Below, one piece after another: positions 22,344 to 51,585 of a stretch of 64,000 nucleotides of DNA. This stretch comes from an uncultured bacterium (lineage in GTDB: Bacteria; Fidelibacterota; Marinisomatia; Marinisomatales; UBA2128), in assembly GCA_964534955.1 (NCBI GenBank), contig CAZHRR010000002.1, positions 11,069-75,068 on the forward strand, given 5' to 3'. Each line of letters begins with the position of its first letter. Positions within the stretch are counted from its first letter, which is position 1. The notes under the pieces are model-generated. The model was not told the origin of the DNA. It did not search any database and saw only the letters and a program-made list of their open reading frames with translations. Position numbers and translations under genes: made by a program.

Positions 22344-22347
22344 ATTG

Positions 22348-24562: not shown

Positions 24563-24566
24563 AAAA

Positions 24567-26387
24567 ATGAGGTTTATGAAACTATTCATATTCAGAACTG
24601 TTCCCGTGATTGCTCTCGGTGTGATTCTCCTGACAGGGTGCAGTCAGGACAAGGAAACAGAGGCTGGATTACAGGTTCAAGAGGAAGAGAGACAGCTGTA
24701 CAGTTGTGGTATGCACCCGAATGTCATACAGGAAGGTCCGGGGAACTGTCCCATATGCGGGATGAAGCTTACGCCTCTTGGCGGCAGTCCCTCAGCGGTC
24801 ACGACATCGGCTTCGGCAGCTGATGAGCAGGGAGAAAGGAGGATTCTATACTGGCGAGCCCCAATGGATCCGACTTACATTTCACCCAAACCCGGTAAGT
24901 CTCCAATGGGAATGGATCTGATTCCTGTCTTCGAGGGAGAGGAAGCATTTGGTGCCACTGTAAAGATCAACCCGACTGTCCAGCAAAATATGGGGATAAG
25001 GGCGGCAACTGTAGAAAGGAGAGACCTTCAGCAGAAGATCCGGACAGTTGGTCATCTTGATTATGATGAATCAACAGTCGGCCATGTTCACACGAAATTC
25101 TCCGGCTGGATTGAAAAAACACATGTGAATATAACAGGCCAAACTGTTAGGAAAGGCCAGTCTCTTCTGGATATCTACAGTCCTCAATTGGTCTCTGCCC
25201 AGGAAGAGTATCTTGATGCTTTAAAGAACCTTGTGGGTACATCTGATTCCTTCTCAGGAAAGACCAACAAGAATGTGAGAAGCATTCTTTCCTCAACAAA
25301 AAGGCGATTGGAGTACTTCGACATATCAGATGAGCAGATCCAGAGCCTGGGGAATACGGGGCAGGTAAAGAAGACGATGTCACTGATATCACCTTTTGAC
25401 GGAGTTGTCGTGGAAAAACATGCTCTAGACGGTATGGAAGTGAAACCGGCAATGATGCTTTACACCATTGCTGACCTGTCGGAGATATGGGTGTATGCCG
25501 ATATCTATGAATATGAGACCCCATGGGTCAGGGTTGGTCAAGAAGCCAGAATGACACTTTCTTATGACCCGGGGAAGGAGTACACGGGCAAAGTCCAATA
25601 CGTTTATCCATACCTTGAGGAAAAATCACGAACGATCAAGGTCAGGTTGGCCTTCCCTAACCCAAACTTGGATCTCAAACCCGGGATGTACGCTAATGTA
25701 GAAATCAAGACGTCTCCTCTTCAGGATGTGGTATCCGTGCCTATGGAGGCTGTGCTCTTTACAGGCGAGCGACATCTTGTGTTCGTAGAACTGGAGGAAG
25801 GGCGTTTTGCCCCCAGAGATGTTACGATCGGAATTGAGAGTGGAGACGGATACTATCATGTGAAAGACGGTCTGTCCGAAGGAGAATCTGTTGTTACGTC
25901 AGGTCAGTTCCTGCTTGATTCGGAAAGCAGGCTCCAGGAAAGTATTGCGAAAATGCTTCAAATAAAAGGGTCAGAAGCAGAACAACTAAGTATAGAGGAA
26001 AAACAAAATGAGGAAACCCCTACTGAAGAACACCAGCATAGTCATGAACTGGAAGAGATGAAAGAACACGAAACCGAGGAAACAGATAATCATGAAAAGG
26101 AACATAAAATGATGAAGACTAAGAAAACGGAAGCTTCACTGTCCTTTGGGAATCTGGAAGAAAGCATGCTTGCCTATTATACCTGCCCGATGGAATCTCA
26201 TTCCTACGTACGAATGAGCGAACCGGGCAAGTGTCCGGACTGCGGAATGCAGTTGGTGCAGAAGAGAGAGCACTTTGATCAGGACGAGACTTTCTACACT
26301 TGTCCCATGCCGGCACACAGCTATGTCATAGAAGAAGTGCCCGGAGACTGCCCTGTCTGCGGAATGGAACTGGTCGAAGCCAAATGA
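24567..26387 (+). CDS. cusB: CusB-like RND periplasmic adaptor with three HMBD modules
   Basis: Lipoprotein signal (LLTGC). One N-terminal HMBD (YSCGMHPNVIQEGPGNCPICGMKL), an MFP core, a His/Glu-rich linker, and two C-terminal HMBDs (YYTCPMESHSYVRMSEPGKCPDCGMQL, FYTCPMPAHSYVIEEVPGDCPVCGMEL). Confidence 0.85.
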   Translation: MRFMKLFIFRTVPVIALGVILLTGCSQDKETEAGLQVQEEERQLYSCGMHPNVIQEGPGNCPICGMKLTPLGGSPSAVTTSASAADEQGERRILYWRAPMDPTYISPKPGKSPMGMDLIPVFEGEEAFGATVKINPTVQQNMGIRAATVERRDLQQKIRTVGHLDYDESTVGHVHTKFSGWIEKTHVNITGQTVRKGQSLLDIYSPQLVSAQEEYLDALKNLVGTSDSFSGKTNKNVRSILSSTKRRLEYFDISDEQIQSLGNTGQVKKTMSLISPFDGVVVEKHALDGMEVKPAMMLYTIADLSEIWVYADIYEYETPWVRVGQEARMTLSYDPGKEYTGKVQYVYPYLEEKSRTIKVRLAFPNPNLDLKPGMYANVEIKTSPLQDVVSVPMEAVLFTGERHLVFVELEEGRFAPRDVTIGIESGDGYYHVKDGLSEGESVVTSGQFLLDSESRLQESIAKMLQIKGSEAEQLSIEEKQNEETPTEEHQHSHELEEMKEHETEETDNHEKEHKMMKTKKTEASLSFGNLEESMLAYYTCPMESHSYVRMSEPGKCPDCGMQLVQKREHFDQDETFYTCPMPAHSYVIEEVPGDCPVCGMELVEAK

Positions 26388-26482
26388 CAATGCGACTGCT
26401 ATCCTACGATTCTAGCGAAGAGGTTAGCAGCAATTAGGACAGGAAACATTAGAGAAAAGAATATTTGCAGCAGGAGTGTCTG

Positions 26483-29400
26483 ATGATTGAGAAAATAATA
26501 GAATGGTCCATAAACAATCGATTTATAGTTATTCTAGCCGTAGTATTTGTGATTCTTGGCGGTTTTATGGCCATGACTACTACCCCTCTGGATGCCATTC
26601 CAGATTTGAGTGATGTACAGGTTATCATCCTTACCAAGTATCCAGGGCAGGCGCCTCAGGTAGTGGAAGACCAGGTGACGTATCCTCTCACTACCGCCAT
26701 GCTCTCAGTCCCATATGCCAAAGTAGTTCGAGGTTATTCATTTTTTGGCTTGTCTTTTGTATACATCATTTTCGAGGACGGTACGGATATGTATTGGGCT
26801 CGAAGCCGGGTGTTGGAGTATCTCAATTTCGTCTCCGGCCGGCTGCCTCAAGGAGTCACACCGCAACTAGGTCCTGACGCCACCGGGGTCGGCTGGGTCT
26901 ATGAGTACACTGTGGAGAGCGACCAGCATGACCTGCAGCAATTACGTTCTATTCAGGATTGGTATTTAAGGTATCAATTGATGAGTGTGCCTGGAGTATC
27001 AGAAGTTGCGAGCATCGGTGGTTATGTCAAACAGTACCAGGTAGAAGTGGATCCCAACAAGCTATTGGCATATAACCTTTCCTTAAACAAAGTCAAAATG
27101 GCTATCAAACGAAGCAACAATGATGTGGGTGGAAAGCTGATTGAGATGGCTGAAACGGAATTTATGGTGAGAGGACTTGGCTATATCAAATCTATAGATG
27201 ACCTGAAAAAAGTCCCACTTGGCGTTGACAAGAATGGCACTCCAATTCTGTTAAGAAGCGTTGCCAACATCCATCTGGGACCTGAGTTACGCCGAGGTCT
27301 TGCTGAGCGCGATGGTCTCGGTGAAGTTGTGGGTGGTGTGATCGTGATGCGTTATGGTGAGAATGCACTGGAAGTCATAAAAAATGTTCGGGAAAAAATT
27401 GATGATCTGAAGACAGGTTTGCCGGAAGGGGTTAAAATCTTATCTGCTTATGACCGTTCTCTTCTTATTGAGCGGGCAATTGATAACCTGAAAGAAAAAC
27501 TTCTTGAGGAAAGTGTTGTTGTAGCGTTGGTCTGCATCATTTTTCTTCTTCACTTTCGCAGCGCATTTGTGGCGATCTTTACTTTACCTGTTGGAATACT
27601 GATGTCTTTTCTCGTTATGCGGTATCAGGGAATTAATGCCAACATTATGTCTTTAGGGGGCATAGCTATTGCAATTGGGGCTATGGTGGATGCGGCAATC
27701 GTCATGATAGAGAATGCTCATAAACATATTGAACGTCGCAGGGGAGAAGAAGATCATTGGCAATTGATTCTTGATGCATCAAAAGAAGTGGGGCCTGCAC
27801 TGTTTTATTCTTTGCTGATTATCACTTTTTCATTCCTTCCTGTCTTTTCGCTGCAAGCTCAAGAAGGCCGCCTTTTCAGTCCATTGGCATTTACAAAAAC
27901 TTATGCTATGGGTGCATCAGCTCTATTGGCTATCACTATTGTTCCCGTTTTAATGGGTTACCTTATCAAGGGAAAGATACTTCCCGAACAGAGAAACCCC
28001 ATCAATCGTTTTCTTATATATGTTTACCGACCAATGATCCGGTTTGTTCTTCGGTTCAGGAAAACCACTTTATCGATGGCGTTATTAGCCCTTGTGGTTA
28101 CCATCATTCCGCTAAAAAATATTGGGTCTGAGTTTATGCCTCCCTTAAACGAAGGCGACCTGCTGTATATGCCCACAACTGATCCGGGTATTTCCATCAC
28201 GAAGGCAAGGGAACTTCTGCAGCAAACGGATAAGATCATCAAGACTTTTCCAGAGGTGGAACGTGTATTCGGGAAAATTGGACGGGCTGAGACAGCCACG
28301 GATCCTGCTCCTCTGAGCATGATCGAAACCACCATCACTCTGAAACAGATTGACAAGTGGCCAAAACGCAAGACGGCATCACGCTGGTATTCTGGTTGGA
28401 TGCCTGACTGGCTGGCAGCCCCATTCAGATGGATATGGCCAGAGCAGCGCCCTGTGACTATGGAGGAACTGGTGAATGAACTGAACGCTGCCATCCAGTT
28501 CCCGGGTCTGACCAACGCATGGACTATGCCTATAAAGACAAGAATTGATATGTTGAGTACAGGCATTAAAACACCTGTGGGTATAAAATTAATGGGCTCT
28601 AATCTTGATACCTTAAATGTTCTGGGAGCAAGGGTTCAGGCGATTGTTCAAAAATTGCCGGGAACATTGAGCGCCTTTGCTGACAAAGTTACGGGTGGAA
28701 ATTTTCTTGATTTCGAAATCAACAGGGAAGAGGCTGCCCGGTACGGTCTTACTATCGGCGATGTGCAGGATATTATTCAATCGGCAGTGGGAGGTATGAA
28801 TATCAGTTATACTGTTGAAGGTCTTGAAAGATACCCTATTAATCTTCGCTATAGCAGGGAACTGCGGGACAGTATCAGCAAGCTGAAGAGGGTTATTATT
28901 CCCACTCCTACAGGAGCGCAGATTCCCATCAGCCAGGTGGCAGATATATTTGTTCGAAAAGGCGCACCGGTTATCAAAAGCGAAAATGCCAGAAATACAG
29001 GATGGATCTATGTCGACATTACCGGGATTGATGTAGGAACCTACGTCAAAAGAGCTCAAAAAGTGTTAAAAGAGGAATTAAAGTTGCCCGAAGGATATTC
29101 AATCGTCTGGAGTGGTCAATACGAGTATATGGAGCGTGCTGCGAAAAGACTCAGGATAGTAGTGCCAGTTACTTTGGTGATCATCTTCTTATTGTTATTC
29201 TTCAATTTCAAGAACGTAACGGAAAGTGTGATTGTAATGTTGTCCCTCCCCTTTTCTCTTGTTGGCGGATTGTGGTTCATGTATTTGTTGGGCTATAATA
29301 TGAGTGTGGCGGTTGGTGTGGGATTTATTGCACTGGCTGGAGTGGCTGCTGAAACAGGTGTAGTTATGCTAATTTATTTAGATCACGCTTTCGCGGCGAG

Positions 29401-29689
29401 AAAAAATCGAGGAACGATGAACACGCTGAAGGATCTTTATGATGCAGTTATGGAAGGGGCAGTAGACAGGGTGAGACCCAAGATGATGACAGTGACGGCA
29501 ATAATGGCAGGACTTTTGCCTATCCTCTGGGGACATGGTACCGGTTCTCAAGTGATGAAACGTATCGCAGCGCCAATGGTGGGAGGGATGGTGACATCTA
29601 CGCTCCTTACCTTGCTGGTCATCCCTACCATCTATTTCCTGTGGAAATCTGTGGAGGTAAAAAAGCGATTAGAAGGAGGAGAAGAATGA
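26483..29689 (+). CDS. cusA: CusA/CzcA-family heavy-metal efflux RND pump
   Basis: About 1068 aa from the ATG at 26483 (MIEKIIEWSINNRF, typical HME-RND N-terminus), with a 12-TM RND architecture. The RBS caggag lies upstream. Confidence 0.95.
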   Translation: MIEKIIEWSINNRFIVILAVVFVILGGFMAMTTTPLDAIPDLSDVQVIILTKYPGQAPQVVEDQVTYPLTTAMLSVPYAKVVRGYSFFGLSFVYIIFEDGTDMYWARSRVLEYLNFVSGRLPQGVTPQLGPDATGVGWVYEYTVESDQHDLQQLRSIQDWYLRYQLMSVPGVSEVASIGGYVKQYQVEVDPNKLLAYNLSLNKVKMAIKRSNNDVGGKLIEMAETEFMVRGLGYIKSIDDLKKVPLGVDKNGTPILLRSVANIHLGPELRRGLAERDGLGEVVGGVIVMRYGENALEVIKNVREKIDDLKTGLPEGVKILSAYDRSLLIERAIDNLKEKLLEESVVVALVCIIFLLHFRSAFVAIFTLPVGILMSFLVMRYQGINANIMSLGGIAIAIGAMVDAAIVMIENAHKHIERRRGEEDHWQLILDASKEVGPALFYSLLIITFSFLPVFSLQAQEGRLFSPLAFTKTYAMGASALLAITIVPVLMGYLIKGKILPEQRNPINRFLIYVYRPMIRFVLRFRKTTLSMALLALVVTIIPLKNIGSEFMPPLNEGDLLYMPTTDPGISITKARELLQQTDKIIKTFPEVERVFGKIGRAETATDPAPLSMIETTITLKQIDKWPKRKTASRWYSGWMPDWLAAPFRWIWPEQRPVTMEELVNELNAAIQFPGLTNAWTMPIKTRIDMLSTGIKTPVGIKLMGSNLDTLNVLGARVQAIVQKLPGTLSAFADKVTGGNFLDFEINREEAARYGLTIGDVQDIIQSAVGGMNISYTVEGLERYPINLRYSRELRDSISKLKRVIIPTPTGAQIPISQVADIFVRKGAPVIKSENARNTGWIYVDITGIDVGTYVKRAQKVLKEELKLPEGYSIVWSGQYEYMERAAKRLRIVVPVTLVIIFLLLFFNFKNVTESVIVMLSLPFSLVGGLWFMYLLGYNMSVAVGVGFIALAGVAAETGVVMLIYLDHAFAARKNRGTMNTLKDLYDAVMEGAVDRVRPKMMTVTAIMAGLLPILWGHGTGSQVMKRIAAPMVGGMVTSTLLTLLVIPTIYFLWKSVEVKKRLEGGEE

Positions 29690-30048
29690 AAGAGATTAAG
29701 GCCTACATCCGATGCTCAGCCGTTGAGAGAGTTATCCAAGCTCTTCATAAAATCGGTGCTGAGAATCTGACGGTTATTGATGTCATGGCTTTAGGTAAAA
29801 CGATGATAGATCCGGATCACTACAAATACTCAATTGAGTGTGTTGAGAAGTACTCTGATGTAGCCAAGATCGAAATCATTTGTGCTGACGAAGATGCCGA
29901 TAGAATTGTAGAGGTTATGCGATCTGAAGCGTACTCCGGAGAGAGAGGAGATGGTGTTATTTTCATATCGGAGGTAAGCCGTGCTGTAAAGATACGGACA
30001 GGTGAATCGGGAGAGCAGATTCTACAACCTGAAATGGCACGAAGTTAG
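29686..30048 (+). CDS. PII (GlnB)-like signalling protein
   Basis: MKEIKAYIR...GDGVIFISEVSRAVKIRTGESGEQIL aligns with the PII core. The T-loop region is divergent. The ATG overlaps the cusA stop (ATGA). Confidence 0.75.
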   Translation: MKEIKAYIRCSAVERVIQALHKIGAENLTVIDVMALGKTMIDPDHYKYSIECVEKYSDVAKIEIICADEDADRIVEVMRSEAYSGERGDGVIFISEVSRAVKIRTGESGEQILQPEMARS

Positions 30049-30162
30049 TCATTCTATGAAGAAGGTGACACTTTGCTTTCAAGAACATAAGCATGGCATC
30101 AGTGATGCCGGGCGAAGCCTAATAAGAATCGTCGTGACTGGTCGATAGAAAAGGAGTTGAAA

Positions 30163-32163
30163 ATGGTACAGATTTCGGATAGCCTTATACTTTTCTCATT
30201 CATTCTTGCTGGTTATGCGACTTGGGCCGCCTTCATGAGCGGCCAGTGGCGCAGAGAGAAATTGCTGGCCAGTGCTGAGCGCAGTGCTCTTGCCTTGTTT
30301 GCGCTGTCAACTTTGTTGATTGTGGTGCTATTGTCTGCTTTTGTGACTCGTGATTTCTCACTGAAATACGTTGCATCTTATTCCAGCCGAACTCTGCCAA
30401 TGTTTTACACCATCTCCGCCCTATGGGCTGGGCAGGCAGGATCGCTCTTGCTGTGGACTTGGCTTCTCTGTCTGTTTTCGGCGATAATTGTCTGGCAGAA
30501 TCGTCAGAAAAACCGGGACCTGATGCCGTATGTTCTCGGTACCCTCCTTTTCACTGCTTTCTTTTTCTTTGGACTGATGGTGTACGCTACAAGTCCGTTT
30601 GAGCTCCTGCCGCAGTCAGTGGCCGATGGGAACGGTCTCAATCCCATGCTGCAAAACTCTGGTATGGTCATTCATCCGCCAACACTTTTTCTGGGTTACG
30701 TCGGTTTTACCGTCCCCTTCGCCTTCGCAATTGCTGCATTGATCAGCAAAAGGCTTGACGCACAATGGATTCGCACAACCCGTCGGTGGACACTGTTTTC
30801 TTGGCTCTTTCTTACAATAGGTATCTTGTTTGGTGCAAAGTGGGCTTATGTTGAATTGGGGTGGGGCGGTTATTGGGCATGGGATCCAGTAGAGAACGCT
30901 TCGCTGATGCCGTGGTTAACTGGTACGGCGTTCCTGCATTCGGTGATAATTCAAGAAAAGCGTGGCATGCTGAAAGTATGGAATCTTGTGCTCATTGTTA
31001 TCACATTTAGCCTTACCATATTCGGAACATTTATCACCCGCAGCGGGATCATCGGTTCGGTTCATTCATTCGGAGTTTCAAATCTCGGCCCTCTGTTTTT
31101 GATTTTCCTCAGTGTGATCCTGGTTATCTCGCTGGGTCTTTTGTGGCTGCGTCGGCCAAATCTACAAAGCGACAATCATCTGGATGCATTCCTTTCCCGC
31201 GAGTCCAGCTTTCTCTTCAATAATCTGATCCTTGTAGGCATTGCCTTCGCTGTTTTCTGGGGCACGATCTTTCCGTTCATTTCCGAAGCTGTACGCAGTA
31301 CAAAAATTACTGTTGGTCCGCCATACTACAATCAGGTGAACTTGCCGTTAGGTCTGGCGCTCTTGGCACTCACCGGTATTTGTCCCCTGATAGCTTGGCG
31401 AAAAGTGTCGAAACGTAACCTGCGCCGCAGCTTTGTGATTCCTTTGTCTGGCTTTCTACTTACTGGGGTTGTCCTTCTCCTGTTTGGTCTGCGTTCCTTC
31501 TATTCAATTATGTCATTTGCGCTTTCGGTATTCGTACTGACAACAATTGGTTTGGAATTCTATCGTGGAGGTAAGGCTCGTGCCCGAATAAAAGATGTGA
31601 ACTTAGTTCAGGGCATGTGGGATTTGACTGTACGGAACAAACAGCGATATGGCGGCTATATCGTCCACCTTGGTGTGGTCATGATTTTTGTCGGCATCAC
31701 TGGCTCCAGTGCTTTTCAGCAGGAACAGACAGCTGTACTGGATCAGGGAGAGTCGATAAAAATTGCCGATTTTTCCCTGCAATATCAAGGTCTTGTGGAC
31801 CAATCCACAGAACACGCGCAAATCGTTGCCGCTAAGCTGCATGTAGATAAAGCCGGAGAGACGGTAGACACTATGTTTCCAGCAAAACAAATACATCGCA
31901 ACCAAGAGCCGGTCTCAGAAGTGGATATCCGGCAGACATTGAAAGAGGACCTTTACCTTATTCTCGCCGGATGGGATGACCAACAACGGGCTACGGTAAA
32001 GGCTCTTGTTGTTCCTCTTGTTGCATGGATTTGGATAGGTGGAACCGTCATGATTGTCGGTACACTCATAGCTGTCGGACCTGACAGGGTGAACCGTAAG
32101 AGAAGATCTTTCCACGCTCGAAGTGTAAGACGCCAAGAAGTGGAGGAGATACAATATGCTTAA
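30163..32163 (+). CDS. ccmF: Cytochrome c maturation heme lyase subunit CcmF
   Basis: WGGYWAWDPVENASLMPWL (WWD motif) in a polytopic protein of ~666 aa. The ATG at 30163 lies 6 nt after aaggag. Confidence 0.9.
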   Translation: MVQISDSLILFSFILAGYATWAAFMSGQWRREKLLASAERSALALFALSTLLIVVLLSAFVTRDFSLKYVASYSSRTLPMFYTISALWAGQAGSLLLWTWLLCLFSAIIVWQNRQKNRDLMPYVLGTLLFTAFFFFGLMVYATSPFELLPQSVADGNGLNPMLQNSGMVIHPPTLFLGYVGFTVPFAFAIAALISKRLDAQWIRTTRRWTLFSWLFLTIGILFGAKWAYVELGWGGYWAWDPVENASLMPWLTGTAFLHSVIIQEKRGMLKVWNLVLIVITFSLTIFGTFITRSGIIGSVHSFGVSNLGPLFLIFLSVILVISLGLLWLRRPNLQSDNHLDAFLSRESSFLFNNLILVGIAFAVFWGTIFPFISEAVRSTKITVGPPYYNQVNLPLGLALLALTGICPLIAWRKVSKRNLRRSFVIPLSGFLLTGVVLLLFGLRSFYSIMSFALSVFVLTTIGLEFYRGGKARARIKDVNLVQGMWDLTVRNKQRYGGYIVHLGVVMIFVGITGSSAFQQEQTAVLDQGESIKIADFSLQYQGLVDQSTEHAQIVAAKLHVDKAGETVDTMFPAKQIHRNQEPVSEVDIRQTLKEDLYLILAGWDDQQRATVKALVVPLVAWIWIGGTVMIVGTLIAVGPDRVNRKRRSFHARSVRRQEVEEIQYA

Positions 32164-32644
32164 TCGAAATTTGCTGCTGAACAAGACCATGATAATACTT
32201 TTGTTGTTTATGACCCCTTTGTTAACAGAGTCAGAAGTTACTCTGGGAGAGATCAAGAAAAGTCTTACCTGTCTGTGCGAATGCAACATGACCGTTGAAG
32301 CCTGTCAAGGGGCGATGGCCTGTGACTCTGCGGAAAATCTAACCCAAGAGGCAAAACGATTGATTGACAGAAATATGGGTCAGAAGGAAGTCTTGGCCAG
32401 TTTTGTCACACGTTATGGTGAGCGCATTCTTGCCGCACCATCGAAAAGAGGATTTAACCTCACAGCATGGATTTTGCCTTTTGCCGCCATTACTGTTACA
32501 GGTTTTGGCATTATCAGCGCCTTGCGAAAGTGGGTACGTTCTCCAGAGGAGGAGAGTGAAAGATCAGGGATAAATGCTGTTGATGCCGCCGACCTTGAGT
32601 ACGAGGAAGAGCTGGAGGAGGTTCTGCGTGATTTTTCCGGTTGA
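32156..32644 (+). CDS. ccmH: CcmH/NrfF-like protein
   Basis: Signal sequence, a Cys motif (LTCLCECNMTVEAC), ...VTRYGERILAAP, a TM segment and an acidic tail. Overlaps the ccmF end by 8 nt. Confidence 0.7.
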   Translation: MLNRNLLLNKTMIILLLFMTPLLTESEVTLGEIKKSLTCLCECNMTVEACQGAMACDSAENLTQEAKRLIDRNMGQKEVLASFVTRYGERILAAPSKRGFNLTAWILPFAAITVTGFGIISALRKWVRSPEEESERSGINAVDAADLEYEEELEEVLRDFSG

Positions 32645-32741
32645 AATTTGTGGTGAGAATCGAGAAGAGAAATGGAACAAACTCTGAGACGCTTTCTACA
32701 AAGGAATTTTTCATTAATCAGCAATTGATGGAGTAAAGCTT

Positions 32742-33182
32742 ATGAACACGGTTGTATTGTTGTCAATCATCCTGGGTAGTGCCTTGTATGTGGCATTGCC
32801 ATTTCTTAGAAAGAAGACTGTTTCGTTAAGTGTCACTGGATCTAAGAATGTTCGCCTTGATGATCTTTACACGTACCGAGACAATCTTGTGTCCTCAATC
32901 AAAGAGCTTGAATTCGACTGCGAAACGGGGAAAATAGGAGGCGAAGATTTTGCAGAAATAAACGCCCGGTATCGTCGTCAAGCCATAGGTGTGCTCAAGG
33001 ACATCCACTCATTAGAGAAGGGCGATGGTTCACCACAGAAGTTTGAGAAGGAATTGTCTGATCTCCGCCTGAAGGGAAAAAGCGGGGGGACGCTTGACTG
33101 TCCTCACTGTGAAGCTCCGGTCATGTCAGAGGACAGCTTTTGCAGTCAGTGTGGTCACCGTCTGCATAATGATGGTTCGTAA
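32742..33182 (+). CDS. CcmI-N-terminal-like protein with a C-terminal zinc ribbon
   Basis: An N-terminal TM segment plus LRKK is followed by LYTYRDNLVSSIKELEFDCETGKIGGEDFAEINARYRRQ, which resembles the CcmI leucine-zipper module. The C-terminus is CPHC..(13)..CSQC. Confidence 0.45.
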   Translation: MNTVVLLSIILGSALYVALPFLRKKTVSLSVTGSKNVRLDDLYTYRDNLVSSIKELEFDCETGKIGGEDFAEINARYRRQAIGVLKDIHSLEKGDGSPQKFEKELSDLRLKGKSGGTLDCPHCEAPVMSEDSFCSQCGHRLHNDGS

Positions 33183-33254
33183 GGTTGGGAAATGTTACGT
33201 GAGGAAAGAGAGTGAAGTTGGAATGGATGGGTTTTTTTCCCATAGATTCTACAC

Positions 33255-33737
33255 ATGAAAAAAACCGGAACTGAAATGAAGGAAAGCAACTCAGTTGAAT
33301 CTCATGACGGTTATCGCCGTCGGTTGTTCCTTAACTATCTTCTCACTGGGGGTATCTTAAGTTTTACTGCGTCAATTATCTACCCAATTTTTCGTTTTTT
33401 AATTCCGCCTGAAAATGCAGAACCAGTTCCCACAAGCGTTGTTGCTGGAACTGCCAACGAATTAAAACCAAATAGTAGTAAAATTATCCGGTTCGGAAGA
33501 AAACCGGCTATCTTGATTCGTACAAAGAAAGGGGAATACAGAGCGTTTACTGCTGTCTGTACGCACCTTGATTGTACCGTACAATATCGTGAGGATTTTC
33601 TGCATATTTGGTGTGCCTGTCATAACGGACATTATGATTTGAAAGGCATAAACATTGCTGGACCACCTCCTCGTCCATTAGAATGGTTCAAGGTAGACAT
33701 TAATGAGGGTAAAGTCTTTGTATCAAAGATAACCTGA
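33255..33737 (+). CDS. Rieske 2Fe-2S protein (membrane-anchored, RR-containing N-terminus)
   Basis: CTHLDC and CACHNGH cluster boxes, a YRRRLF twin-arginine-like motif and a TM anchor. Confidence 0.85.
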   Translation: MKKTGTEMKESNSVESHDGYRRRLFLNYLLTGGILSFTASIIYPIFRFLIPPENAEPVPTSVVAGTANELKPNSSKIIRFGRKPAILIRTKKGEYRAFTAVCTHLDCTVQYREDFLHIWCACHNGHYDLKGINIAGPPPRPLEWFKVDINEGKVFVSKIT

Positions 33738-33811
33738 AAACTTTCACGGGATTATTAGAGAACATGAGAAAGTCGAAATCAAAATAGTGAATAAATAATG
33801 AGAAAGATTAA

Positions 33812-33898
33812 CTAAAAGATCCAGTGTGTGGAATGACAGTATCTGTGGGTTCTGCGGCGGGATTTGAGACATCAGTTATTGATAAATGGAGGAAATGA
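33812..33898 (+). pseudogene. Start-less relic of a TRASH/YHS-domain coding sequence (copA 5'-like)
   Basis: Reads [19 protein letters not shown]... directly after a TAA. It closely matches copA codons at 37707-37721 (AAAGATCCAGTGTGT is identical) and at 37923-37967 ([15 protein letters not shown]). Confidence 0.5.
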
Positions 33899-34314
33899 TG
33901 AATAATAAAAAACCGAATACAGCAATTACAATTACATTGGGTCTGTTCATCCTTGGAGTTGTTTTACATGCTCAAGGAACAGCGGAGAATCCACAGCCCA
34001 AGAATCTTGGCCAGCAGCCAATTGTACGTGTGGCAGCTGATCATGTCTGTATGGGTATGGGCGTCAATCGCGTTTTTGACAAAGAACTCTTACCCGCAGT
34101 TGTTGAGGGCAAGACCTATTACGGATGTTGTGAGGGATGTCAGGCTACACTCCAGAAGGATCCCAAAAGCAGGATTGCAGTCGATCCCGTTACCGGAAAT
34201 GTTGTGGACAAAGCGACGGCTGTCATTGGTGCGCTCCCCAATGGAGTGGTGCACTATTTCGAGAATGAACAAACGATGAAACAATTTGCTCAACATATAC
34301 AATTGCAGGAATGA
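33886..34314 (+). CDS. Secreted YHS/TRASH-like protein
   Basis: Signal/TM segment, then DHVCMGMGV...GKTYYGCCEGCQATLQKDP and a degenerate second repeat (VDPVTGNVV...VVHYFENEQTMKQF). Confidence 0.45.
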   Translation: MEEMMNNKKPNTAITITLGLFILGVVLHAQGTAENPQPKNLGQQPIVRVAADHVCMGMGVNRVFDKELLPAVVEGKTYYGCCEGCQATLQKDPKSRIAVDPVTGNVVDKATAVIGALPNGVVHYFENEQTMKQFAQHIQLQE

Positions 34315-34524
34315 AATGATGAGGTCATTAAATCTTGTTGCTTCAGAGCTGTCTGAAAGGGATTTAGACTTATTCTCTCGACTGAAATTTGGTATGATAG
34401 TTCCGGATTTAGGCGAAGTTGATTATGAAGAATAAAGGATCGATTCCATGAGAAGAAGAGGTGAAACCTGGCAAACTGTTAGTCCACGGAGCAACTTGCG
34501 CCGCTTTAAAGAGGAGGGGAAAAC

Positions 34525-35061
34525 ATGTTTGAAGGATTGAATGCATTAGAAGGAATACATCCGCTTGTTGTGCATTTTCCCATCGTGTTGACCTTGTTGG
34601 CTCTGTTGAGCCAGGTATGGGAGCAACTGAGAGGTCTCCCTGACGGCTTGAAAAAAGCCCCAGTGCTGCTGCTATACCTGTCGGCTGTAAGCGCTCTTGT
34701 CAGTGTGGCAACTGGATACTGGACGACTGAGTTACTTGGGCATGAAACGCCGGGTCATGAGTTTGTCCATACTCACAGGGATGTGATGGTCTGGTACACA
34801 TCAATCCTTGTCCTCGGGACATTGGTACATCTTATCGTCAAGAAGTGTCAGACTGGGATATACCGGCTATTCTTGCTGATTGTCACAACTGGAATCATGG
34901 TCGTGGGGACAGACCTGGGCGGTCAATTGGTCTATCGGTATGGAGTAGGCGTGAAAAGTGGGATTTCATCAAGTGAGAATAGTGAAGACCAGGGGGAAGC
35001 CGAGGGGCAGGAAAAGCAGGAAACTCACATACACCCCAACGGTTCCGAGCACGTCCATTGA
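34525..35061 (+). CDS. DUF2231-like membrane protein with a His/Glu-rich tail
   Basis: HPLVVHFPIVL motif, 4-5 TM segments and a C-terminal tail (SSENSEDQGEAEGQEKQETHIHPNGSEHVH). Confidence 0.6.
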   Translation: MFEGLNALEGIHPLVVHFPIVLTLLALLSQVWEQLRGLPDGLKKAPVLLLYLSAVSALVSVATGYWTTELLGHETPGHEFVHTHRDVMVWYTSILVLGTLVHLIVKKCQTGIYRLFLLIVTTGIMVVGTDLGGQLVYRYGVGVKSGISSSENSEDQGEAEGQEKQETHIHPNGSEHVH

Positions 35062-35074
35062 TGATGGGCAGGAA

Positions 35075-37321
35075 ATGAAGAGGATAGACAATAAGAGGTC
35101 ACACAGGTTCTTCTACAGGACAGTTCACCCGTTTGCTCCCCGGTCATTTCAGATCATCACTGTCTTGTCTCTTATTGTAAGCCTCGGATTTGGACAGGAG
35201 GGCTTCCCATCAGGATCTATCGTGGGCACTGTTAATAGCAGCGAAGGCCCATTGACTGGAGTGCAAGTCTGGCTGGAAGGCACCGAGGAGGGTGATATCA
35301 CCGATTCACTGGGAATGTATCGGTTGGAGGTTCTATCTCCCGGAGACTATCAAATTGTCTTCCGACATATCGGATACAAAGAGGTAACAAGAAAAATCAT
35401 AGTAGTAGAAGCGAGGGAAGAGCAGATTATTAATATCGAGTTGAACCAAGTAGCGGTTGAAATGGATGCGATCTTAGTGACGCCCAAAGAGGAGGGGTTC
35501 GACCCTTCTGGTATCACGGCTCGATTGACAACCCGTATGATTCAGGAAGCTCCAGGGGCCGCGCAGGACATCTTTCTGGTGCTGCAGACGCTTCCCGGGG
35601 TCTCTTCGGGTGGGGACGATTCGAAGCTATTTGTAAGAGGCGGGAGGCCTGAAGAGAACCTCATAGTCTACGATGGCGCCACAATTCCAAACCCGTTCCA
35701 TTTTGATTTTATCGGTGGCGGGTTTTACTCAATTTTCAATTCTGCTCTTGTTGAGAATGTAGAGTTCTATTCAGGATGGTTTCCTGCTCGATACGGAGAT
35801 CGTCTTTCGTCAGTAATGATAATCGAGAACCGGGAGGCAAATCGTGAAAGAACAAGAGCCGAGATTTCCTTGAGCATGTCTGATTTGTCTGGAATGGTCG
35901 AAGCGCCCATTTCAAGCACAGCTGCTACTATCCTGAGCGTTCGCCGCAGCTATTTTGATCTTCTTCTCAATGAATCAGGATTTGGTGGTAAATACGATCT
36001 CCTGCCCTTTTTCTATGATGTGAATTCCCGGACTGATGTTTTTCTCGCGGATAGACATCGACTGTCAATAAATCTTCTATACTCGCGTGAAGAGATGTCT
36101 GGCGAGTTTGACGAGCCTCACTGGGAAGGAATGCATAACTGGTCAAGTGAAAGCTGGACTGCGGCGATGAGACTGCGATCACTTTTTTCAGAGAACTTTG
36201 CATCTGATCTAAACATCTATTGGAGCGAAGGAAGCAACAGAGCCAGCCACGCTGATGACATAGGTACTGAGAATACCAGGAAAGGGGAGGTGGCGATTAA
36301 AGAGGATATCGCTATTCGTAGAGGTGTTCACGAGTTTCATCTCGGTATGTGGCTGGTGCAGGATCGAGGTGAAATGAGAATCAACTTGCCTTTGGATCTG
36401 GCCTACAATTTTGAGCCGCTTGCCTTTGAATCAAACGGCAATACCACTAAACTTGCACTCTATACGGACGATACATGGAGAGTTAACGACAAGATTTCAT
36501 TGAACCTGGGCGTTAGGGGAGACCATATTATTATCAGTTCAGAAACCACCCTGTCACCTAGGCTGAATCTGGTTGTCACTCCGACAGAGACTGTCCAGCT
36601 TTCAGCCAACTATGGTTTGTATACACAGAGCCCTCCAGCATATGAACTAAAGAAAAACATCCAGCTTCGATCAAGGCAATCGCGTGCATGGGGAATAGGT
36701 ATTTCTGGGACTTTCTCATCAGGCGATTTCTGGAGTCTTGAAGGCTATCGGAAACAGCTTTCCAACTTGATGACAATCGATTCCGTGGGGAACTTCGCCA
36801 GTGAAGGAGAAGGTAGTGCAACCGGTTATGAACTTTACGTTCAGAGAAAGAGCGGAGATAGTTTCATCGGCTGGGGCTCCGTGACCTACTCTATTGCCAA
36901 AAGAAAGGAGCAGACGGCCGAGGAGGTGACACTATTTGACTATGATCAAACCTATATGGTTACAGCTGTAGGACAGTATCGCCCGTCAAAGAAGTGGAAA
37001 CTGAGTCTGCGGTTCCGCTACGCAACCGGAAGACCCTACACTCCCGCAGAAGGGAGCTGGTACAACACTGAAGCTCAAAGATTTTTTCCAGTTGTTGGAG
37101 AAAGAAACTCTTCACGATATCCCCCCTATCATCGGCTTGACATCCGTGTGGCACGATACTTTCCGCAGATACTCGGGGGACTAACTGTCTATTTGGAGAC
37201 AATCAATACGTATGATCGGGACAACGTTGCCTACTATGTCTGGAGTGAGGATTTCTCCAGCAAGAGGAACTTCACTGTGTTTCCTTTCATTCCCGTGATA
37301 GGCATAGATTTGATGTTATAG
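35075..37321 (+). CDS. TonB-dependent receptor with an N-terminal CarboxypepD_reg-like domain
   Basis: GSIVGTVNS..GVQVWLEG...GMYRLEVLSPGDYQIVFRHIGY, then a plug and a long beta-barrel. I chose the ATG at 35075 so the gene does not overlap the previous one. Confidence 0.75.
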   Translation: MKRIDNKRSHRFFYRTVHPFAPRSFQIITVLSLIVSLGFGQEGFPSGSIVGTVNSSEGPLTGVQVWLEGTEEGDITDSLGMYRLEVLSPGDYQIVFRHIGYKEVTRKIIVVEAREEQIINIELNQVAVEMDAILVTPKEEGFDPSGITARLTTRMIQEAPGAAQDIFLVLQTLPGVSSGGDDSKLFVRGGRPEENLIVYDGATIPNPFHFDFIGGGFYSIFNSALVENVEFYSGWFPARYGDRLSSVMIIENREANRERTRAEISLSMSDLSGMVEAPISSTAATILSVRRSYFDLLLNESGFGGKYDLLPFFYDVNSRTDVFLADRHRLSINLLYSREEMSGEFDEPHWEGMHNWSSESWTAAMRLRSLFSENFASDLNIYWSEGSNRASHADDIGTENTRKGEVAIKEDIAIRRGVHEFHLGMWLVQDRGEMRINLPLDLAYNFEPLAFESNGNTTKLALYTDDTWRVNDKISLNLGVRGDHIIISSETTLSPRLNLVVTPTETVQLSANYGLYTQSPPAYELKKNIQLRSRQSRAWGIGISGTFSSGDFWSLEGYRKQLSNLMTIDSVGNFASEGEGSATGYELYVQRKSGDSFIGWGSVTYSIAKRKEQTAEEVTLFDYDQTYMVTAVGQYRPSKKWKLSLRFRYATGRPYTPAEGSWYNTEAQRFFPVVGERNSSRYPPYHRLDIRVARYFPQILGGLTVYLETINTYDRDNVAYYVWSEDFSSKRNFTVFPFIPVIGIDLML

Positions 37322-37626
37322 AAGGCTTTGAAAAACCTACTGCACAAATTAAAAAAGAGTAAAATTCGCCTGTCCACAGGGCACACACAGTGTCCTCCGT
37401 ACAGCCTCCTTCGTAGATCCTGCGGACTTTTCGTTGGAAAACTCGTCCATAGCGTTGCTATTGACTGCATTTTCCCGCCTGAATGGCCCGTCCGAACGGC
37501 AGGGCCGGGCGGGCATTGTCGGGCAGGCCGTCTTAATCAGACCTGTCTGCGTTCCACTCCGAACAGGCAGGCAAATTTTTCTTCTTTTTTCTTCACACAT
37601 AAGATTTTGCAAAGCCTTCTTATAGA
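37316..37626. mobile_element. MITE-like element bounded by inverted repeats
   Basis: AGAAGGCTTTG (37320-37330) pairs perfectly with CAAAGCCTTCT (37610-37620), and flanking TTAT/TATA bases pair partially. The interior carries CCCGTCCGAACGGC, GTCGGGCAGGC and CGAACAGGCAGGC. The left end overlaps the receptor stop codon. Confidence 0.4.
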
Positions 37627-37700: not shown

Positions 37701-40211
37701 ATGAAAGATCCAGTGTGTAGTATGTCCGTGGAGGAAGAAACGGCCGCAGGTGTTGTAGAATGGCAAGGAGTCCGATACGGTTTCTGCTCCCAGCACTGTC
37801 TTGAACTTTTCGAGAAGGAACCAGAAAAGTTTGTAAAGGAGAGTACCGAATCGTCAGACTCCGATCTGCTGGAACAGGCAACAGACATTCCTCCCAGTGA
37901 AGATGATAGGAAATCTAATGTAGATCCAGTGTGTGGTATGACGGTGGCTCTGGAGTCTGCTGCCGGTTCTTACACTTATGAGGCGGAAACGTACTACTTC
38001 TGTTCGGCCCACTGTTTGGAGAAGTTCAAATCGAATCCAGAGCTATTTGTTGGTATTGACGAAGAGAAACCGCATGAGATGGTTGGTGAAATGGTGGAGG
38101 GCGCCGGTCAATATACCTGCCCCATGCATCCGGAAATGGTTCAGGATGGACCGGGAGATTGTCCCATTTGTGGAATGGCACTGGAGCCGATGACGGCTAC
38201 CCTGAAAGAAGAAGTTAATCCCGAGCTGGTGGACATGAACCGCCGGTTCTGGACCAGTTTAATCCTTACTTTTCCTCTTCTGATTTTTGTGATGACCGAG
38301 ATGTTCTTCGGAAGAGCTCTTCTGCCTCCCTCATTAGGGAAATGGGTTCAATTGCTTCTCGCTACGCCCGTTGTCCTATGGGGAGGGAAGCTGTTCTTTG
38401 TACGCGGTTGGAACTCAATAGTCAATCGAAGTCTGAATATGTTTACCCTTATCGCCACTGGCACAGGTGTGGCCTATATTTTCAGTGTCGTGGCCACATT
38501 TTTCCCGAGGATATTTCCTGCTGCCTTCAGAAGAGTTGAAGGAGAAGTGGCTGTCTACTTTGAAGCTGCAGCAGTAATCATAACTCTGGTGCTGCTGGGT
38601 CAGGTTCTGGAGTTGAGGGCCCGGGATAAGACGAGCAGCGCCATCAAGGCTTTACTGGGACTTGCTCCCAAAACAGCGCGTATAGTCCGGGATGATGACA
38701 CAGAAGAGGACATCCCTCTTGAGCACGTAAAACCCGGTGACCGGCTACGAGTACGTCCGGGTGAGAAAGTACCCGTTGACGGGATTGTGGTCGAGGGTAC
38801 CAGTTCTGTTGATGAATCCATGGTAACAGGGGAAGCCATACCGGTAATGAAAGCTGCTGGTGACAATGTGACGGGGGCTACCGTGAATGAGACAGGTTCC
38901 TTCCTTATGAAGGCGGAACGGGTTGGCAGCGATACATTGCTTGCTCAAATCGTCAAGATGGTGAGTGAGGCTCAGCGCAGCCGTGCTCCCATTCAGAGTC
39001 TTGCTGACAGGGTAGCATCCTATTTTGTCCCCGCAGTGGTCATTATCAGCATCCTTACTTTCATCGTGTGGAGCCTGGCGGGACCAGAACCGCGCATGGC
39101 CTTTGCTTTGCTCAATGCCGTTGCTGTTCTTATTATTGCTTGTCCTTGCGCGCTTGGATTGGCAACACCCATGTCCATCATGGTAGGAACTGGACGTGGT
39201 GCCATGACCGGTGTCTTGATTAAGAATGCTGAAGCTCTGGAAACCATGGAAAAGGTGGATACTCTCGTGGTTGATAAAACAGGCACGCTGACAGAGGGGA
39301 AGCCGCGTTTGGTAACAATTGAAGGGGAAGGTCAGCATACGCAAGACGGGTTACTCCGGACTGTTGCCAGTCTTGAGCAGGCCAGTGAACATCCTCTGGG
39401 AGCAGCTATCGTTAAGGCCGCTAAAGAAGAGAATCTGAAATTGGAGCGAGTTAAAAGTTTTGAATCTATCACTGGGAAAGGGGTAAAGGGAACCATCAAC
39501 GGAATAGTAGTGGCTGTGGGTAACCGGAAGCTGCTGGAAGAGCTGCGAGTGAATCCTGGCGGTTTTCCTGAGAAAGCCGAGGAGTTAAGAAAGAACGGCG
39601 AAACAGTGATGTTTGTGTTGATAGATGGGCATGTGGCCGGCTTGCTTGGCGTGGCTGATCCCATTAAGGATACAACCCCTGACGCCATCAAATCCCTTCA
39701 GAAAGAGAACGTCCACGTTGTTATGCTCACAGGGGATAACCGGACGACGGCTGAAGCGGTGGCGAGAAAATTGGGTATTGAAGAGATAGAGGCTGAGGTA
39801 ATGCCTGACAGAAAGAACGAAGTAGTCAAGCGATTCCAGGAAAATGGACGGTTCGTGGCTATGGCTGGTGATGGTATCAATGATGCTCCTGCTTTAGCCC
39901 AAGCTCATGTCGGTATTGCTATGGGCAGCGGAACGGATGTAGCAATAGAAAGTGCGGGGGTAACGCTTGTTCGAGGTGATTTACAGGGTATAGTACGAGC
40001 AAGAAAGCTGAGTGTAGCAACAATGCGTAACATTAAACAGAATCTCTTCTGGGCATTTATCTATAATGCCCTTGGAGTACCAGTTGCCGCAGGAGTTCTA
40101 TATCCATTTTTTGGAGTTTTGCTTAGTCCCATTCTTGCAGCTGCAGCGATGAGTTTCAGTTCTGTCTCGGTAATTGGAAATGCCCTGCGATTGAGAAGTC
40201 TGAGACTATGA
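37701..40211 (+). CDS. copA: Copper-translocating P1B-type ATPase
   Basis: Two N-terminal TRASH/YHS domains (DPVCSM..FCSQHC, DPVCGM..FCSAHC) and one HMBD ([24 protein letters not shown]). Catalytic motifs: [23 protein letters not shown]. Confidence 0.95.
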
Positions 40212-40259: not shown

Positions 40260-40631
40260 GTGAATCGGCGTTTACAGAAGAAACAAACTGGAATGGGTAA
40301 TCAACAACCACTTATCTACAAGTGGTCAGTTTGGGCACTTGTCTGCACGGTCCTTGTCCTGGGGATATGGATTGGTGTTCTTCTTGAAGATAAGGAGAAG
40401 ACCCCACAGGTTAATGAGAATACTTACAGCTCGTTCTCTGCAGCTACAACGCAGATTGCCGGACTGTTTAGCTGCTCTTGCGGCTCATGTGGCGAAAAGA
40501 ACTTAGCGATTTGCGAGTGTCCGACAGCCCTTTCTACAAAGAGATTCATCACTGATAAGTTGAAATCAGGTTCACCTCAAGACCATATTATTGACTTGGT
40601 CAAAACTACCTACGGTCACTATACGGGATAG
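40260..40631 (+). CDS. Membrane-anchored Cys-rich protein (CcmH-like / PCYCGC-like motif)
   Basis: GTG start 8 nt after ggagg, one TM segment, then FSCSCGSCGEKNLAICECPTA...IIDLVKTTYGHY. Confidence 0.45.
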   Translation: MNRRLQKKQTGMGNQQPLIYKWSVWALVCTVLVLGIWIGVLLEDKEKTPQVNENTYSSFSAATTQIAGLFSCSCGSCGEKNLAICECPTALSTKRFITDKLKSGSPQDHIIDLVKTTYGHYTG

Positions 40632-51569: not shown

Positions 51570-51585
51570 TGGCACGGGGTTTGCA
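51570..51585 (+). promoter_or_regulatory. Sigma-54 (-24/-12) promoter
   Basis: TGGCACGGGGTTTGCA matches TGGCAC-N5-TTGCW exactly. It lies 22 nt after the kinase stop and 14 nt before the next ATG. Confidence 0.7.

Follow-up and report, generated by a model that had tools for sequence, protein, structure and literature searches.

Within a 64,000-nucleotide (nt) stretch of DNA from an uncultured bacterium of the Fidelibacterota (contig CAZHRR010000002.1; hereafter the window), a metal island of ~22.8–41.7 kb holds six genes in one orientation (+) between cusCBA–P-II and a TonB receptor/copA pair: ccmF, ccmH, a shortened ccmI (mini-ccmI, or ccmI′), an orphan Rieske gene, a YHS-like gene, and a DUF2231 gene. 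We find that the first four, ccmF–ccmH–mini-ccmI–Rieske (~3.8 kb, hereafter the cassette), behave as one accessory block, that their CcmF belongs to a copper-island clade of its own, and that orphan heme-lyase sets recur in unrelated metal islands. We propose, giving this reading about an even chance, that the cassette is a copper-stress spare-parts module for heme ligation to periplasmic cytochromes c and for a Rieske centre. Throughout, labels such as L001 are our codes for collected neighbourhoods, and coordinates are window positions unless a locus is named.

The accessory nature of the cassette is seen in three independent assemblies/sequencing runs (L083–L085), which share the chromosomal site and the island but have no ccmF, ccmH, mini-ccmI, or Rieske gene: there, cusCBA and P-II are directly followed by the YHS-like gene, DUF2231 (87% amino acid [aa] identity), the TonB receptor (95% aa), and copA (92% aa). 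In a blastn comparison, the gap in L083 corresponds to window positions 30048–34012 and lies between flanks of 75% (left) and 93% (right) nt identity, a mosaic that indicates recombination, and L181, at 93% nt identity, keeps the gene order of the window. Since L083–L085 retain the island without the cassette, ccmF–ccmH–mini-ccmI–Rieske forms one dispensable accessory block, and the YHS-like and DUF2231 genes belong to the island core. A preliminary description of this DNA, made from the sequence alone, had grouped all six genes together, a division that consequently needs revising. Its suggestion of a tie to metal handling, as opposed to housekeeping synteny in relatives lacking the metal genes, holds up well, since L083–L085 display the opposite arrangement (metal genes kept, cassette missing) and the same CcmF clade lies in differently arranged copper islands.

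The six genes that the preliminary description had named were all recovered on the + strand by open reading frame (ORF) calling, Pfam searches, and profile comparison (see the table below; gene starts were taken from the calls on the identical public contigs L081/L082, which put those of ccmF, Rieske, and YHS-like at 30163, 33276, and 33898). It had placed the heme-lyase set directly after the metal pump; the set is indeed there, but a P-II-like gene intervenes. CcmF has the full domain architecture (Cytochrom_C_asm plus CcmF_C) and aligns residue by residue, over its full length, with the Thermus CcmF 6ZMQ (E=7e-108). The WWD motif already read in it (GWGGYWAWDPVEN) is invariant in 150 aligned relatives, and so are H173, H261, H303, and H504, that is, the two heme-b ligands and the two periplasmic histidines. 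Only two substitutions at otherwise conserved sites, F143Y and S344A, are specific to the island clade, so that, judging from its residues, the island CcmF looks like a working heme lyase and not like a repurposed protein; with only these two changes, there is no sign of neofunctionalisation.

CcmH bears a signal peptide and a C-terminal transmembrane (TM) segment, with hydrophobic stretches at residues 5–23 and 102–120, and its motif LTCLCECN...C...C does not match the canonical LRCXXC. This C-x-C-x-C variant occurs in 30 of the 34 related CcmH proteins of the collected loci, and is thus a lineage trait rather than a peculiarity of the island; a phmmer search of the PDB with this CcmH gave no match. 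As for mini-CcmI, the earlier idea of a protein resembling the N-terminus of CcmI, with a zinc ribbon in place of the TPR part, is borne out by the hhalign comparison of its family with the CcmI N-terminus (probability 83%, E=8.4e-6, 76 columns). Pfam and NCBIfam returned no CcmI match, no TPR match was obtained, and the C-terminus carries a CxxC...CxxC zinc ribbon, whose Pfam matches fall under the gathering score.

To place these genes in a wider context, 160 loci around CcmF relatives were fetched from genomes and metagenomes. Ordinary relatives (43–58% identity) are found in the order ccmE(CXXXY)–ccmF–ccmH–mini-ccmI–(340–410-aa secreted protein)–ccmA–B–C, sometimes followed by a thioredoxin gene; across the 160 other loci, most of those with sufficient contig have ccmE immediately upstream, and ccmABC usually lies downstream. 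No cus genes were found in the flanks of these ordinary relatives, and a CopA-like match was found there in only two loci (L068 and L111), in neither case adjoining the ccm genes. The CXXXY motif is present in 41 of the 47 scored ccmE of non-island relatives, which assigns this CcmF lineage to the CXXXY-type variant of System I, known from Desulfovibrio and archaea (PMC9084895). In 48 of 80 genome loci, the gene after ccmH or ccmF encodes a homologue of mini-CcmI, which, being regular in ordinary ccm operons, is a normal component of this variant. Complete CXXXY-type operons also turned up in Bacillaceae (L054, L059, L065, L067–L069, and L078, from Neobacillus, Cytobacillus, and Bacillus, and L189 from Cytobacillus firmus, the last on a 383-kb plasmid), a side observation of its own given that such Firmicutes normally use System II.

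Among 150 CcmF sequences, the proteins of the window, L181, L179, L001, and L088 form an island clade with a neighbour-joining bootstrap of 100/100. About 47 clusters (at 90% identity) lie at 61–100% identity to the window CcmF, and the remaining full-length matches are at 60% or less. All four independent contexts of this clade are copper islands without ccmE or ccmABC. The window has cusCBA, P-II, ccmF, ccmH, mini-ccmI, Rieske, YHS-like, DUF2231, a TonB-dependent receptor, and copA, an order repeated in L181 (93% nt identity). L179/L180, also from Fidelibacterota, has P-II, YHS, a 313-aa ORF, Rieske, a 118-aa ORF, ccmF, ccmH, mini-ccmI, a 350-aa ORF, PCYCGC, and OEP, so that a Rieske gene stands near the island ccmF in a second, independent island. 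L001 (70% aa identity in CcmF) has cusCB, DUF3347, a CcmH-like gene, copA, DUF2231, ccmF, ccmH, mini-ccmI, and a 414-aa ORF. L088 (68% aa identity in CcmF) has cusBA, a histidine kinase, a response regulator, SHOCT, P-II, and YHS, then, after a gap, DUF2231 and a P-ATPase, and further on ccmF, ccmH, mini-ccmI, a 407-aa ORF, and, at some distance, a second YHS gene.

Similar associations exist far from this phylum. A tblastn search over 72,556 plasmids identified 198 with a CcmF gene; seven of the twelve loci inspected hold orphan late-step ccm sets within metal-resistance islands, and the other five hold complete or respiratory operons. The set ccmF–dsbE–ccmH–ccmI lies on Dinoroseobacter shibae pDSHI03 (with SHOCT, DsbD, four cytochromes c, a multicopper oxidase, DsbA, and a P1B ATPase as neighbours), in metal islands of Phaeobacter pP73_b and, together with an orphan petA, of Sulfitobacter faviae, on a Jannaschia plasmid (L196; with CueR, lgt, DsbA, DsbD, and an orphan petA), and on a 24-kb Psychrobacter plasmid (L186, pPspP2G3a; with CadR, a P-ATPase, lgt, lnt, and lspA), while metal islands of a Deinococcus plasmid (L188) and an Iamia plasmid carry ccmF–tlpA and tlpA–ccmF–tlpA–ccdA, respectively. 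The orphan petA, encoding a bc1 Rieske subunit without petB/petC, is found in the Sulfitobacter and Jannaschia islands and on a Roseobacter litoralis plasmid; a petA-like gene was detected on 122 plasmids, and at least a dozen plasmids of the Roseobacter group are among the matches listed for both CcmF and petA. An orphan heme-lyase set and an orphan Rieske gene thus share copper islands in two unrelated phyla, through unrelated gene lineages. With regard to the cargo of these plasmids, lgt, lnt, and lspA sit beside orphan ccmF and metal ATPases on L186, L196, and L188, a hint that metal islands commonly carry additional copies of envelope enzymes that process cysteines.

These distributions bear on the possibility that the placement is neutral, ccmF–ccmH–ccmI′ being simply the lineage's own heme lyase, split from ccmABCE and landed with the Rieske gene by rearrangement, with no link to copper. 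Bacteria often have their ccm genes split over several loci, all catalytic residues are retained in the island CcmF with almost no clade-specific change, and the region appears prone to rearrangement (a miniature inverted-repeat transposable element [MITE]-like insertion, a YHS remnant, and the mosaic identity profile). Yet four copper islands of different organisation share this CcmF clade, the cassette is missing from a close relative that has the island, Marinimicrobia/Fidelibacterota genomes have a different, complete ccm operon, and metal islands in four other phyla also contain orphan ccmF sets and orphan petA genes. We therefore regard a neutral placement as unlikely. As a matter of fact, the complete housekeeping operon (ccmE–F–I′–A–B–C) was found in six such genomes (L034, L036, L037, L039, L047, and L057), with its CcmF in a separate clade.

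The preliminary description had seen neither a heme-c motif in the island nor any cytochrome b or ccm delivery gene, and these absences stand: no + strand gene at 22.8–41.7 kb contains CXXCH, the sole match being a 57-aa ORF antisense to cusA; tblastn with representatives of CcmE, CcmA, CcmB, and CcmC found nothing in the 64 kb; and the Pfam scan, which took in many but not all ORFs of the window, detected no cytochrome b domain. One alternative is a dedicated lyase comparable to NrfEFG, in which CcmFHI′ would mature one copper-response c-type cytochrome, or one protein whose heme motif is non-standard, instead of serving as a general backup. It could be invoked on the grounds that the best NCBIfam matches of CcmF are NrfE-type models, that the orphan ccmFGHI of pDSHI03 adjoins four cytochrome c genes and a multicopper oxidase, that a dihaem cytochrome c gene lies ~0.6 kb upstream of the P-II–YHS–Rieske–ccmF block in L180, and that in Myxococcus xanthus a CcoP-like cytochrome regulated by copper is encoded beside copA (PMC3707914). 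The NrfE-type scores nevertheless stay under their cut-offs (TIGR00353, 472 bits for a cut-off of 569; TIGR03145, the NrfE equivalog, 465 bits for 927), so that membership of NrfE was rejected; besides the missing CXXCH genes, the only CXXCK is the CPECK of the HMBD motifs in the 2xHMBD protein, no nrfA is present in the window, L001 has a single, distant CXXCH ORF, and no residue change in CcmF points to an altered specificity. A dedicated lyase accordingly strikes us as improbable.

The fourth gene of the cassette encodes a Rieske protein in which both cluster boxes (CTHLDC and CACHNGH), an RRRLFL twin-arginine translocation (Tat) motif, and a PetC-type TM anchor can be read. Its best solved relative is the b6f-type subunit 8hn2 (2.5e-15), and its score against the PetC equivalog is 70 bits, for a cut-off of 250. 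The closest relatives (60–76% identity) come from Ignavibacteria, Calditrichia, Fidelibacterota, and Bacteroidota, and the family is orphan in all five contexts seen, three of them metal islands (window, L174, and L179) and two others (Ignavibacterium L182–L184, and L177): no cytochrome b gene is adjacent in the window or in any of these five contexts. A second conserved neighbourhood emerges from L182–L184 and L177, where a flavoprotein or lycopene-cyclase-like protein gene, the Rieske gene, small ORFs, and an M50 protease gene follow one another, with CBM48-like and ICMT-like genes nearby; Ignavibacterium L182–L184 also has YHS, HtrA, and DUF305 genes, and L177 a SHOCT gene. In other loci, the start of the orphan Rieske gene is overlapped by a gene for a membrane protein that has a VACCAHH motif and belongs to no Pfam family (L179 1196–2137, L180 5072–6013, and L174 1088–1537), an overlap that suggests translational coupling and makes this protein, absent from the window, a candidate partner of the Rieske protein.

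Of the two core proteins, the secreted YHS-like one had been described as a tandem repeat. Its first domain is well supported, with residues 51–102 matching YHS domains in hhalign (96.6% probability, E=6.9e-10) and C55, C81/C82, and C85 aligning with the YHS cysteines, while the second, Cys-less repeat is visible by eye only; Pfam gives a weak, sub-threshold TRASH match (0.0023), and a phmmer search of the PDB returned nothing. Where the window has the remnant of a small YHS gene, the corresponding neighbourhoods of L174, L179, and L088 have an intact one (53–69 aa). The DUF2231 assignment, with the conserved histidines and His/Glu tail noticed earlier, is secure (52.2 bits, for a gathering cut-off of 26.4), and an exhaustive search gave 15,432 representatives at E<=0.001. 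The AlphaFold2 model (pLDDT 80) has four long helices, and H12, H17, and H84, invariant in the alignment, map to the ends of TM helices 1 and 3; by the positive-inside rule, they and the tail would face the periplasm. All contexts examined for homologues of this DUF2231 subfamily are copper or metal islands; the neighbour is usually a gene for a small YHS or HMBD protein, and a Rieske gene is mostly absent.

The preliminary description had speculated that the Rieske protein, the YHS-like protein, and DUF2231, the latter as a possible heme-binding partner, form a small redox module. In its full form, this idea has the three proteins act as one periplasm-facing unit on Cu(I)/Cu(II) or thiols, with DUF2231 as heme/metal membrane partner and the ccm genes as assembly factors or unrelated neighbours. 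The three genes are adjacent in the window and L181 and occur together again, reordered, in L174 (YHS-like, YHS, a 149-aa ORF, Rieske, P-II, DUF2231), four of the five contexts of this Rieske family include a YHS gene close by, and the modelled position of the DUF2231 histidines, at helix ends on the presumed periplasmic side, would suit such a role. Against this, DUF2231 is found in six other copper islands with no Rieske gene nearby (L083, L086, L088, L090, L092, and L001), the Rieske gene occurs without DUF2231 nearby in L177, L179, and L182, and L083 retains YHS-like and DUF2231 without Rieske; instead, the Rieske gene is associated with the ccm cassette in the window and is close to ccmF in L179. 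Nor does anything indicate that DUF2231 binds heme: its best Foldseek match, CcmF 6ZMQ, reaches only E=0.25 (TM-score 0.41), hhalign against CcmF gives 1% probability, and ten long relatives scanned against Pfam contain no fusion with Rieske, cytochrome, or other redox domains; fusions of this kind may occur in Actinobacteria. Among the extensions of the long relatives, seven of which were inspected, are His/Asp-rich tails (in five), an HMBD-like motif, and Cys/His/Met repeats, and a metal-binding role appears to fit DUF2231 better than a cytochrome-like one; a literature search on DUF2231 returned an unrelated mention only. A single module of these three proteins is in our view quite improbable, although their co-occurrence in L174 leaves room for a looser functional link.

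A further scenario would join the Rieske protein to CcmF, CcmH, and mini-CcmI, possibly with DUF2231 and the YHS-like protein, not in a backup for cytochrome maturation but in a quinol-driven periplasmic redox machine of a hitherto unrecognised kind, where the heme b of CcmF and the Rieske centre would pass electrons to copper or to copper-damaged thiols. Islands of Fidelibacterota and plasmids of Roseobacter would have acquired it by convergence. We grant it only a slim probability.

Coming back to the spare-parts proposal, ccmF–ccmH–mini-ccmI would encode a stand-alone, late-step CcmFHI ligation complex of the CXXXY-CcmE type. As the cassette is devoid of heme-delivery genes, heme would have to come from a housekeeping CcmABCE encoded elsewhere in the same genome, with which the complex would cooperate. 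Periplasmic Cu(I) is expected to attack free thiols and exposed Fe–S centres, and the cassette, presumably induced by copper, could supply extra or replacement capacity for the reduction of apocytochrome CXXCH motifs and for thioether formation (CcmH/CcmF/CcmI′), plus a Rieske centre, so that respiration might continue while the pumps clear copper. The Rieske protein may replace a copper-damaged centre or serve another role in electron transfer; the secreted YHS/TRASH protein would bind copper, and the conserved histidines and His-rich tail of DUF2231 are probably periplasmic and metal-binding. The lgt/lnt/lspA, DsbA/DsbD, and TlpA genes of the plasmid versions would obey the same logic, as extra enzymes for exported cysteines. 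This reading fits published evidence that copper targets cytochrome c assembly: copper impairs the assembly of periplasmic c-type cytochromes (PMC4600104) and induces the cytochrome c maturation genes ccsA and ccsB in Corynebacterium glutamicum (PMC3140484), and, as cited in PMC3707914, a cytochrome c biogenesis locus is needed for copper resistance in Pseudomonas fluorescens (Yang 1996). A metal-resistance element of Sulfobacillus also holds a CcmF-like gene (PMC6803676).

Several observations weigh against this proposal. The window has no CcmG/TlpA-type reductase, unlike the proteobacterial versions (no WCxxC ORF of at least 100 aa), and its 64 kb contain neither a second, housekeeping ccm operon nor a c-type cytochrome. 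The island clade was inspected in only four independent contexts, out of ~47 sequence clusters, and the ccm set comes without a Rieske gene in L001 and L088. Moreover, the relatives of the Rieske protein at 60–76% identity are all orphans, some of them in contexts not obviously related to copper (in Ignavibacterium, beside a flavoprotein and an M50 protease), which makes the replacement of a bc subunit a weaker part of the proposal than the heme lyase. All models are at their weakest over the partner of the Rieske protein.

If the proposal is right, the final step of heme attachment, which depends on thiols, may be duplicated within copper islands, often along with a lone Rieske subunit; this would be a simple, testable answer to how bacteria protect cytochrome c assembly from copper. 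Many "cytochrome c biogenesis" and "petA" genes on metal-resistance plasmids would then need reinterpreting, a widespread orphan Rieske family of FCB-group bacteria would gain a function, and the idea that resistance islands carry, beyond pumps, spare parts for the cellular targets of the toxin would be supported. The convergence with Roseobacter plasmids makes the harm done by copper to this assembly, a long-standing observation, directly testable; cultured hosts exist (Dinoroseobacter, Phaeobacter, and Psychrobacter).

Features of the metal island, with window positions and the evidence for each assignment
Feature	Position	Strand	Evidence
Small secreted Cys-rich protein, C-terminal PPxSxLxPLxI; left island edge	22856..23203	+	ORF; no Pfam match
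cusC, part of RND copper/silver efflux pump (23312..29689)	23312-24562	+	Pfam OEP 8e-28
cusB with four HMBD repeats	24567-26387	+	Pfam HlyD_D23 7e-80, HMBD 4e-35
cusA	26465-29689	+	Pfam ACR_tran 5e-232
P-II-like protein, after cusA	29686..30048	+	Pfam P-II 6.5e-17
CcmF heme lyase, copper-island clade; cassette start	30163..32163	+	Pfam CcmF_C 4.7e-59, Cytochrom_C_asm 2.2e-42
CcmH, C-x-C-x-C variant; 8-nt overlap with ccmF	32156..32644	+	Pfam PF03918 2.5e-15
Mini-CcmI, 146 aa: N-terminal TM segment, CcmI-1-like helix, C-terminal zinc ribbon	32742..33182	+	hhalign vs CcmI
Orphan Tat/TM-anchored Rieske [2Fe-2S] protein, b6f/bc type; cassette end	33276..33737	+	Pfam Rieske 3e-12, TM_PetC 2.8e-6
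Small YHS gene remnant (5' fragment), right cassette junction	33815..33900	+	76% nt identity over 54 nt to copA YHS-2 coding sequence
Secreted YHS/TRASH-like protein (CMGMG ... CCEGC) with Cys-less second repeat; island core	33898..34314	+	hhalign vs YHS domains
DUF2231 four-helix membrane protein, invariant H12/H17/H84, His/Glu tail; island core	34525..35061	+	Pfam PF09990 8.9e-14
TonB-dependent receptor	35222..37321	+	Pfam Plug and TonB_dep_Rec; 95% aa identity in L083
MITE-like 296-nt insertion	37324..37619	unstranded	absent from L181 and L083; inverted-repeat arms
CopA-type P1B ATPase: two YHS domains, one HMBD	37701..40211	+	Pfam
Second CcmH-like five-Cys protein (C-x-C-x-x-C ... C-x-C), membrane-anchored, copA partner	40260..40631	+	Pfam CcmH 4e-6
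LpoB/CsgG-like lipoprotein	40669-41199	+	Pfam
2xHMBD protein; right island end	41243-41677	+	Pfam

In the clustering of its proteins, NuoD of the window belongs to a 90%-identity cluster that includes Candidatus Marinimicrobia proteins, and CopA groups with a protein from Fidelibacterota. The + strand encodes nearly every gene of the window, and the metal island is preceded, from the window start, by the nuo operon, asnB, a cobalamin adenosyltransferase gene, and a YwiC-like gene. To the inventory of the preliminary description, accurate as far as it went, the table adds a second CcmH-like gene after copA and the YHS remnant in the spacer that separates the Rieske and YHS-like genes. The former belongs to a group of membrane-anchored proteins with a CcmH fold and the pattern F-x-C-x-C-x-x-C-x6-C-x-C that are regular neighbours of copA (also L001 6114–6590, L092 8679–9026, and L181 12563–12979), just upstream or downstream of it in L001, L092, and L181, and to which a PCYCGC-family protein of L179 (7267–7794) is related; these proteins may be copper-binding or thiol-redox partners of the ATPase. 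The P-II-like (GlnB-fold) gene likewise recurs, after cusA or elsewhere within the island, in most related loci examined (L083, L086, L088, L092, L174, L179, and L181). Small Cys-rich proteins are encoded upstream of cusC in the window and directly upstream of the island ccmF in L179 (2675–3031), L180 (6542–6907), and L088 (12885–13283); they share the C-terminal PPxSxLxPLxI motif in the window, L179, and L180, and have no Pfam family in the window and L179, where they were scanned.

The MITE-like element, inserted between the TonB receptor gene and copA, has imperfect 53-nt arms (74% complementary), a TTATAG target duplication, and a predicted fold of -104 kcal/mol; neither L083 nor L181, which is otherwise 93% identical, contains it, and short stretches related to it are found at 22497–22525 and 11362–11392. 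Upstream of the first gene of the island, a 25-nt direct repeat (96% identical, 22344–22368 and 22800–22824) brackets a GC-rich palindromic spacer and could represent either a regulatory site or what is left of a mobile element. A scan for the σ54 consensus produced 31 matches, for 29 expected, with none upstream of the island operons, and σ70 and terminator scans of the window stayed at chance level, on consensus models that may not suit this phylum. A perfect σ54 -24/-12 consensus, TGGCACGGGGTTTGCA, is found at 51570–51585, 15 nt upstream of a Kelch-repeat gene with a type IX secretion system (T9SS) sorting domain; genes for a PP2C phosphatase, a GAF–σ54 activator, and a Ser/Thr kinase (46747–51547) lie just upstream of this site and also flank the copper islands of L092 and L181. 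No Rfam family or tRNA was found in the window.

With regard to known systems, the component families are all known, and annotated plasmids already show late ccm genes associated with metal islands, as yet without explanation: our literature search found no paper analysing orphan ccmF/petA sets as such, only passing mentions, such as the co-occurrence of late ccm genes with metal islands noted in PMC5513947. The Fidelibacterota version has its own CcmF clade, a variant CcmH, mini-CcmI, an orphan b6f-type Rieske protein, and the DUF2231/YHS core. Compared with the CcmFHI complex of System I (6ZMQ; CXXXY variant), the window is alike in its full-length CcmF with the WWD motif and four histidines, in its CcmH partner, and in its CcmI-1-like module, and it differs in having no ccmABCDE/ccmG nearby, a C-x-C-x-C CcmH, a TPR-less CcmI with a zinc ribbon, a copper-island setting, and a separate CcmF clade. 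The plasmid ccmF–dsbE–ccmH–ccmI islands resemble it by their late-step ccm genes without ccmABCDE inside a P1B ATPase/efflux locus, among P1B ATPases, multicopper oxidases, CueR/CadR, and SHOCT, and, in several cases, by an orphan Rieske gene; they belong, however, to another phylum, their CcmF has only 34–40% identity to that of the window, and their Rieske protein is of the bc1 type, whereas that of the window is of the b6f type. The proteobacterial plasmid sets also include CcmG/DsbE, DsbD, and a full TPR CcmI, and are without DUF2231, the P-II-like gene, and the CcmH-like partner of copA.

NrfEFG and other substrate-dedicated lyases provide a precedent for a second CcmF/CcmH/CcmI-like trio relying on the general CcmABCDE, and the best NCBIfam matches are indeed nrfE models; the window departs from them in its sub-cut-off scores, in having no nrfA or CXXCK cytochrome, and in a context of copper efflux instead of nitrite reduction. 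Systems of thiol-redox copper tolerance (Scs, DsbD/DsbA, and TlpA), for which damage to periplasmic thiols by copper is the rationale (PMC10907172), similarly place Cys-handling periplasmic proteins in copper loci, and DsbD, DsbA, and TlpA genes stand beside orphan ccmF in the plasmid islands; the window has instead two five-Cys proteins of the CcmH fold (32156–32644 and 40260–40631), and not thioredoxin-fold ones. Finally, the Rieske protein shares with the bc1/b6f subunits the Tat signal, the TM anchor, and both cluster boxes with their disulfide cysteines, and differs from them by its sub-cut-off PetC score and by the lack of an adjacent cytochrome b gene.

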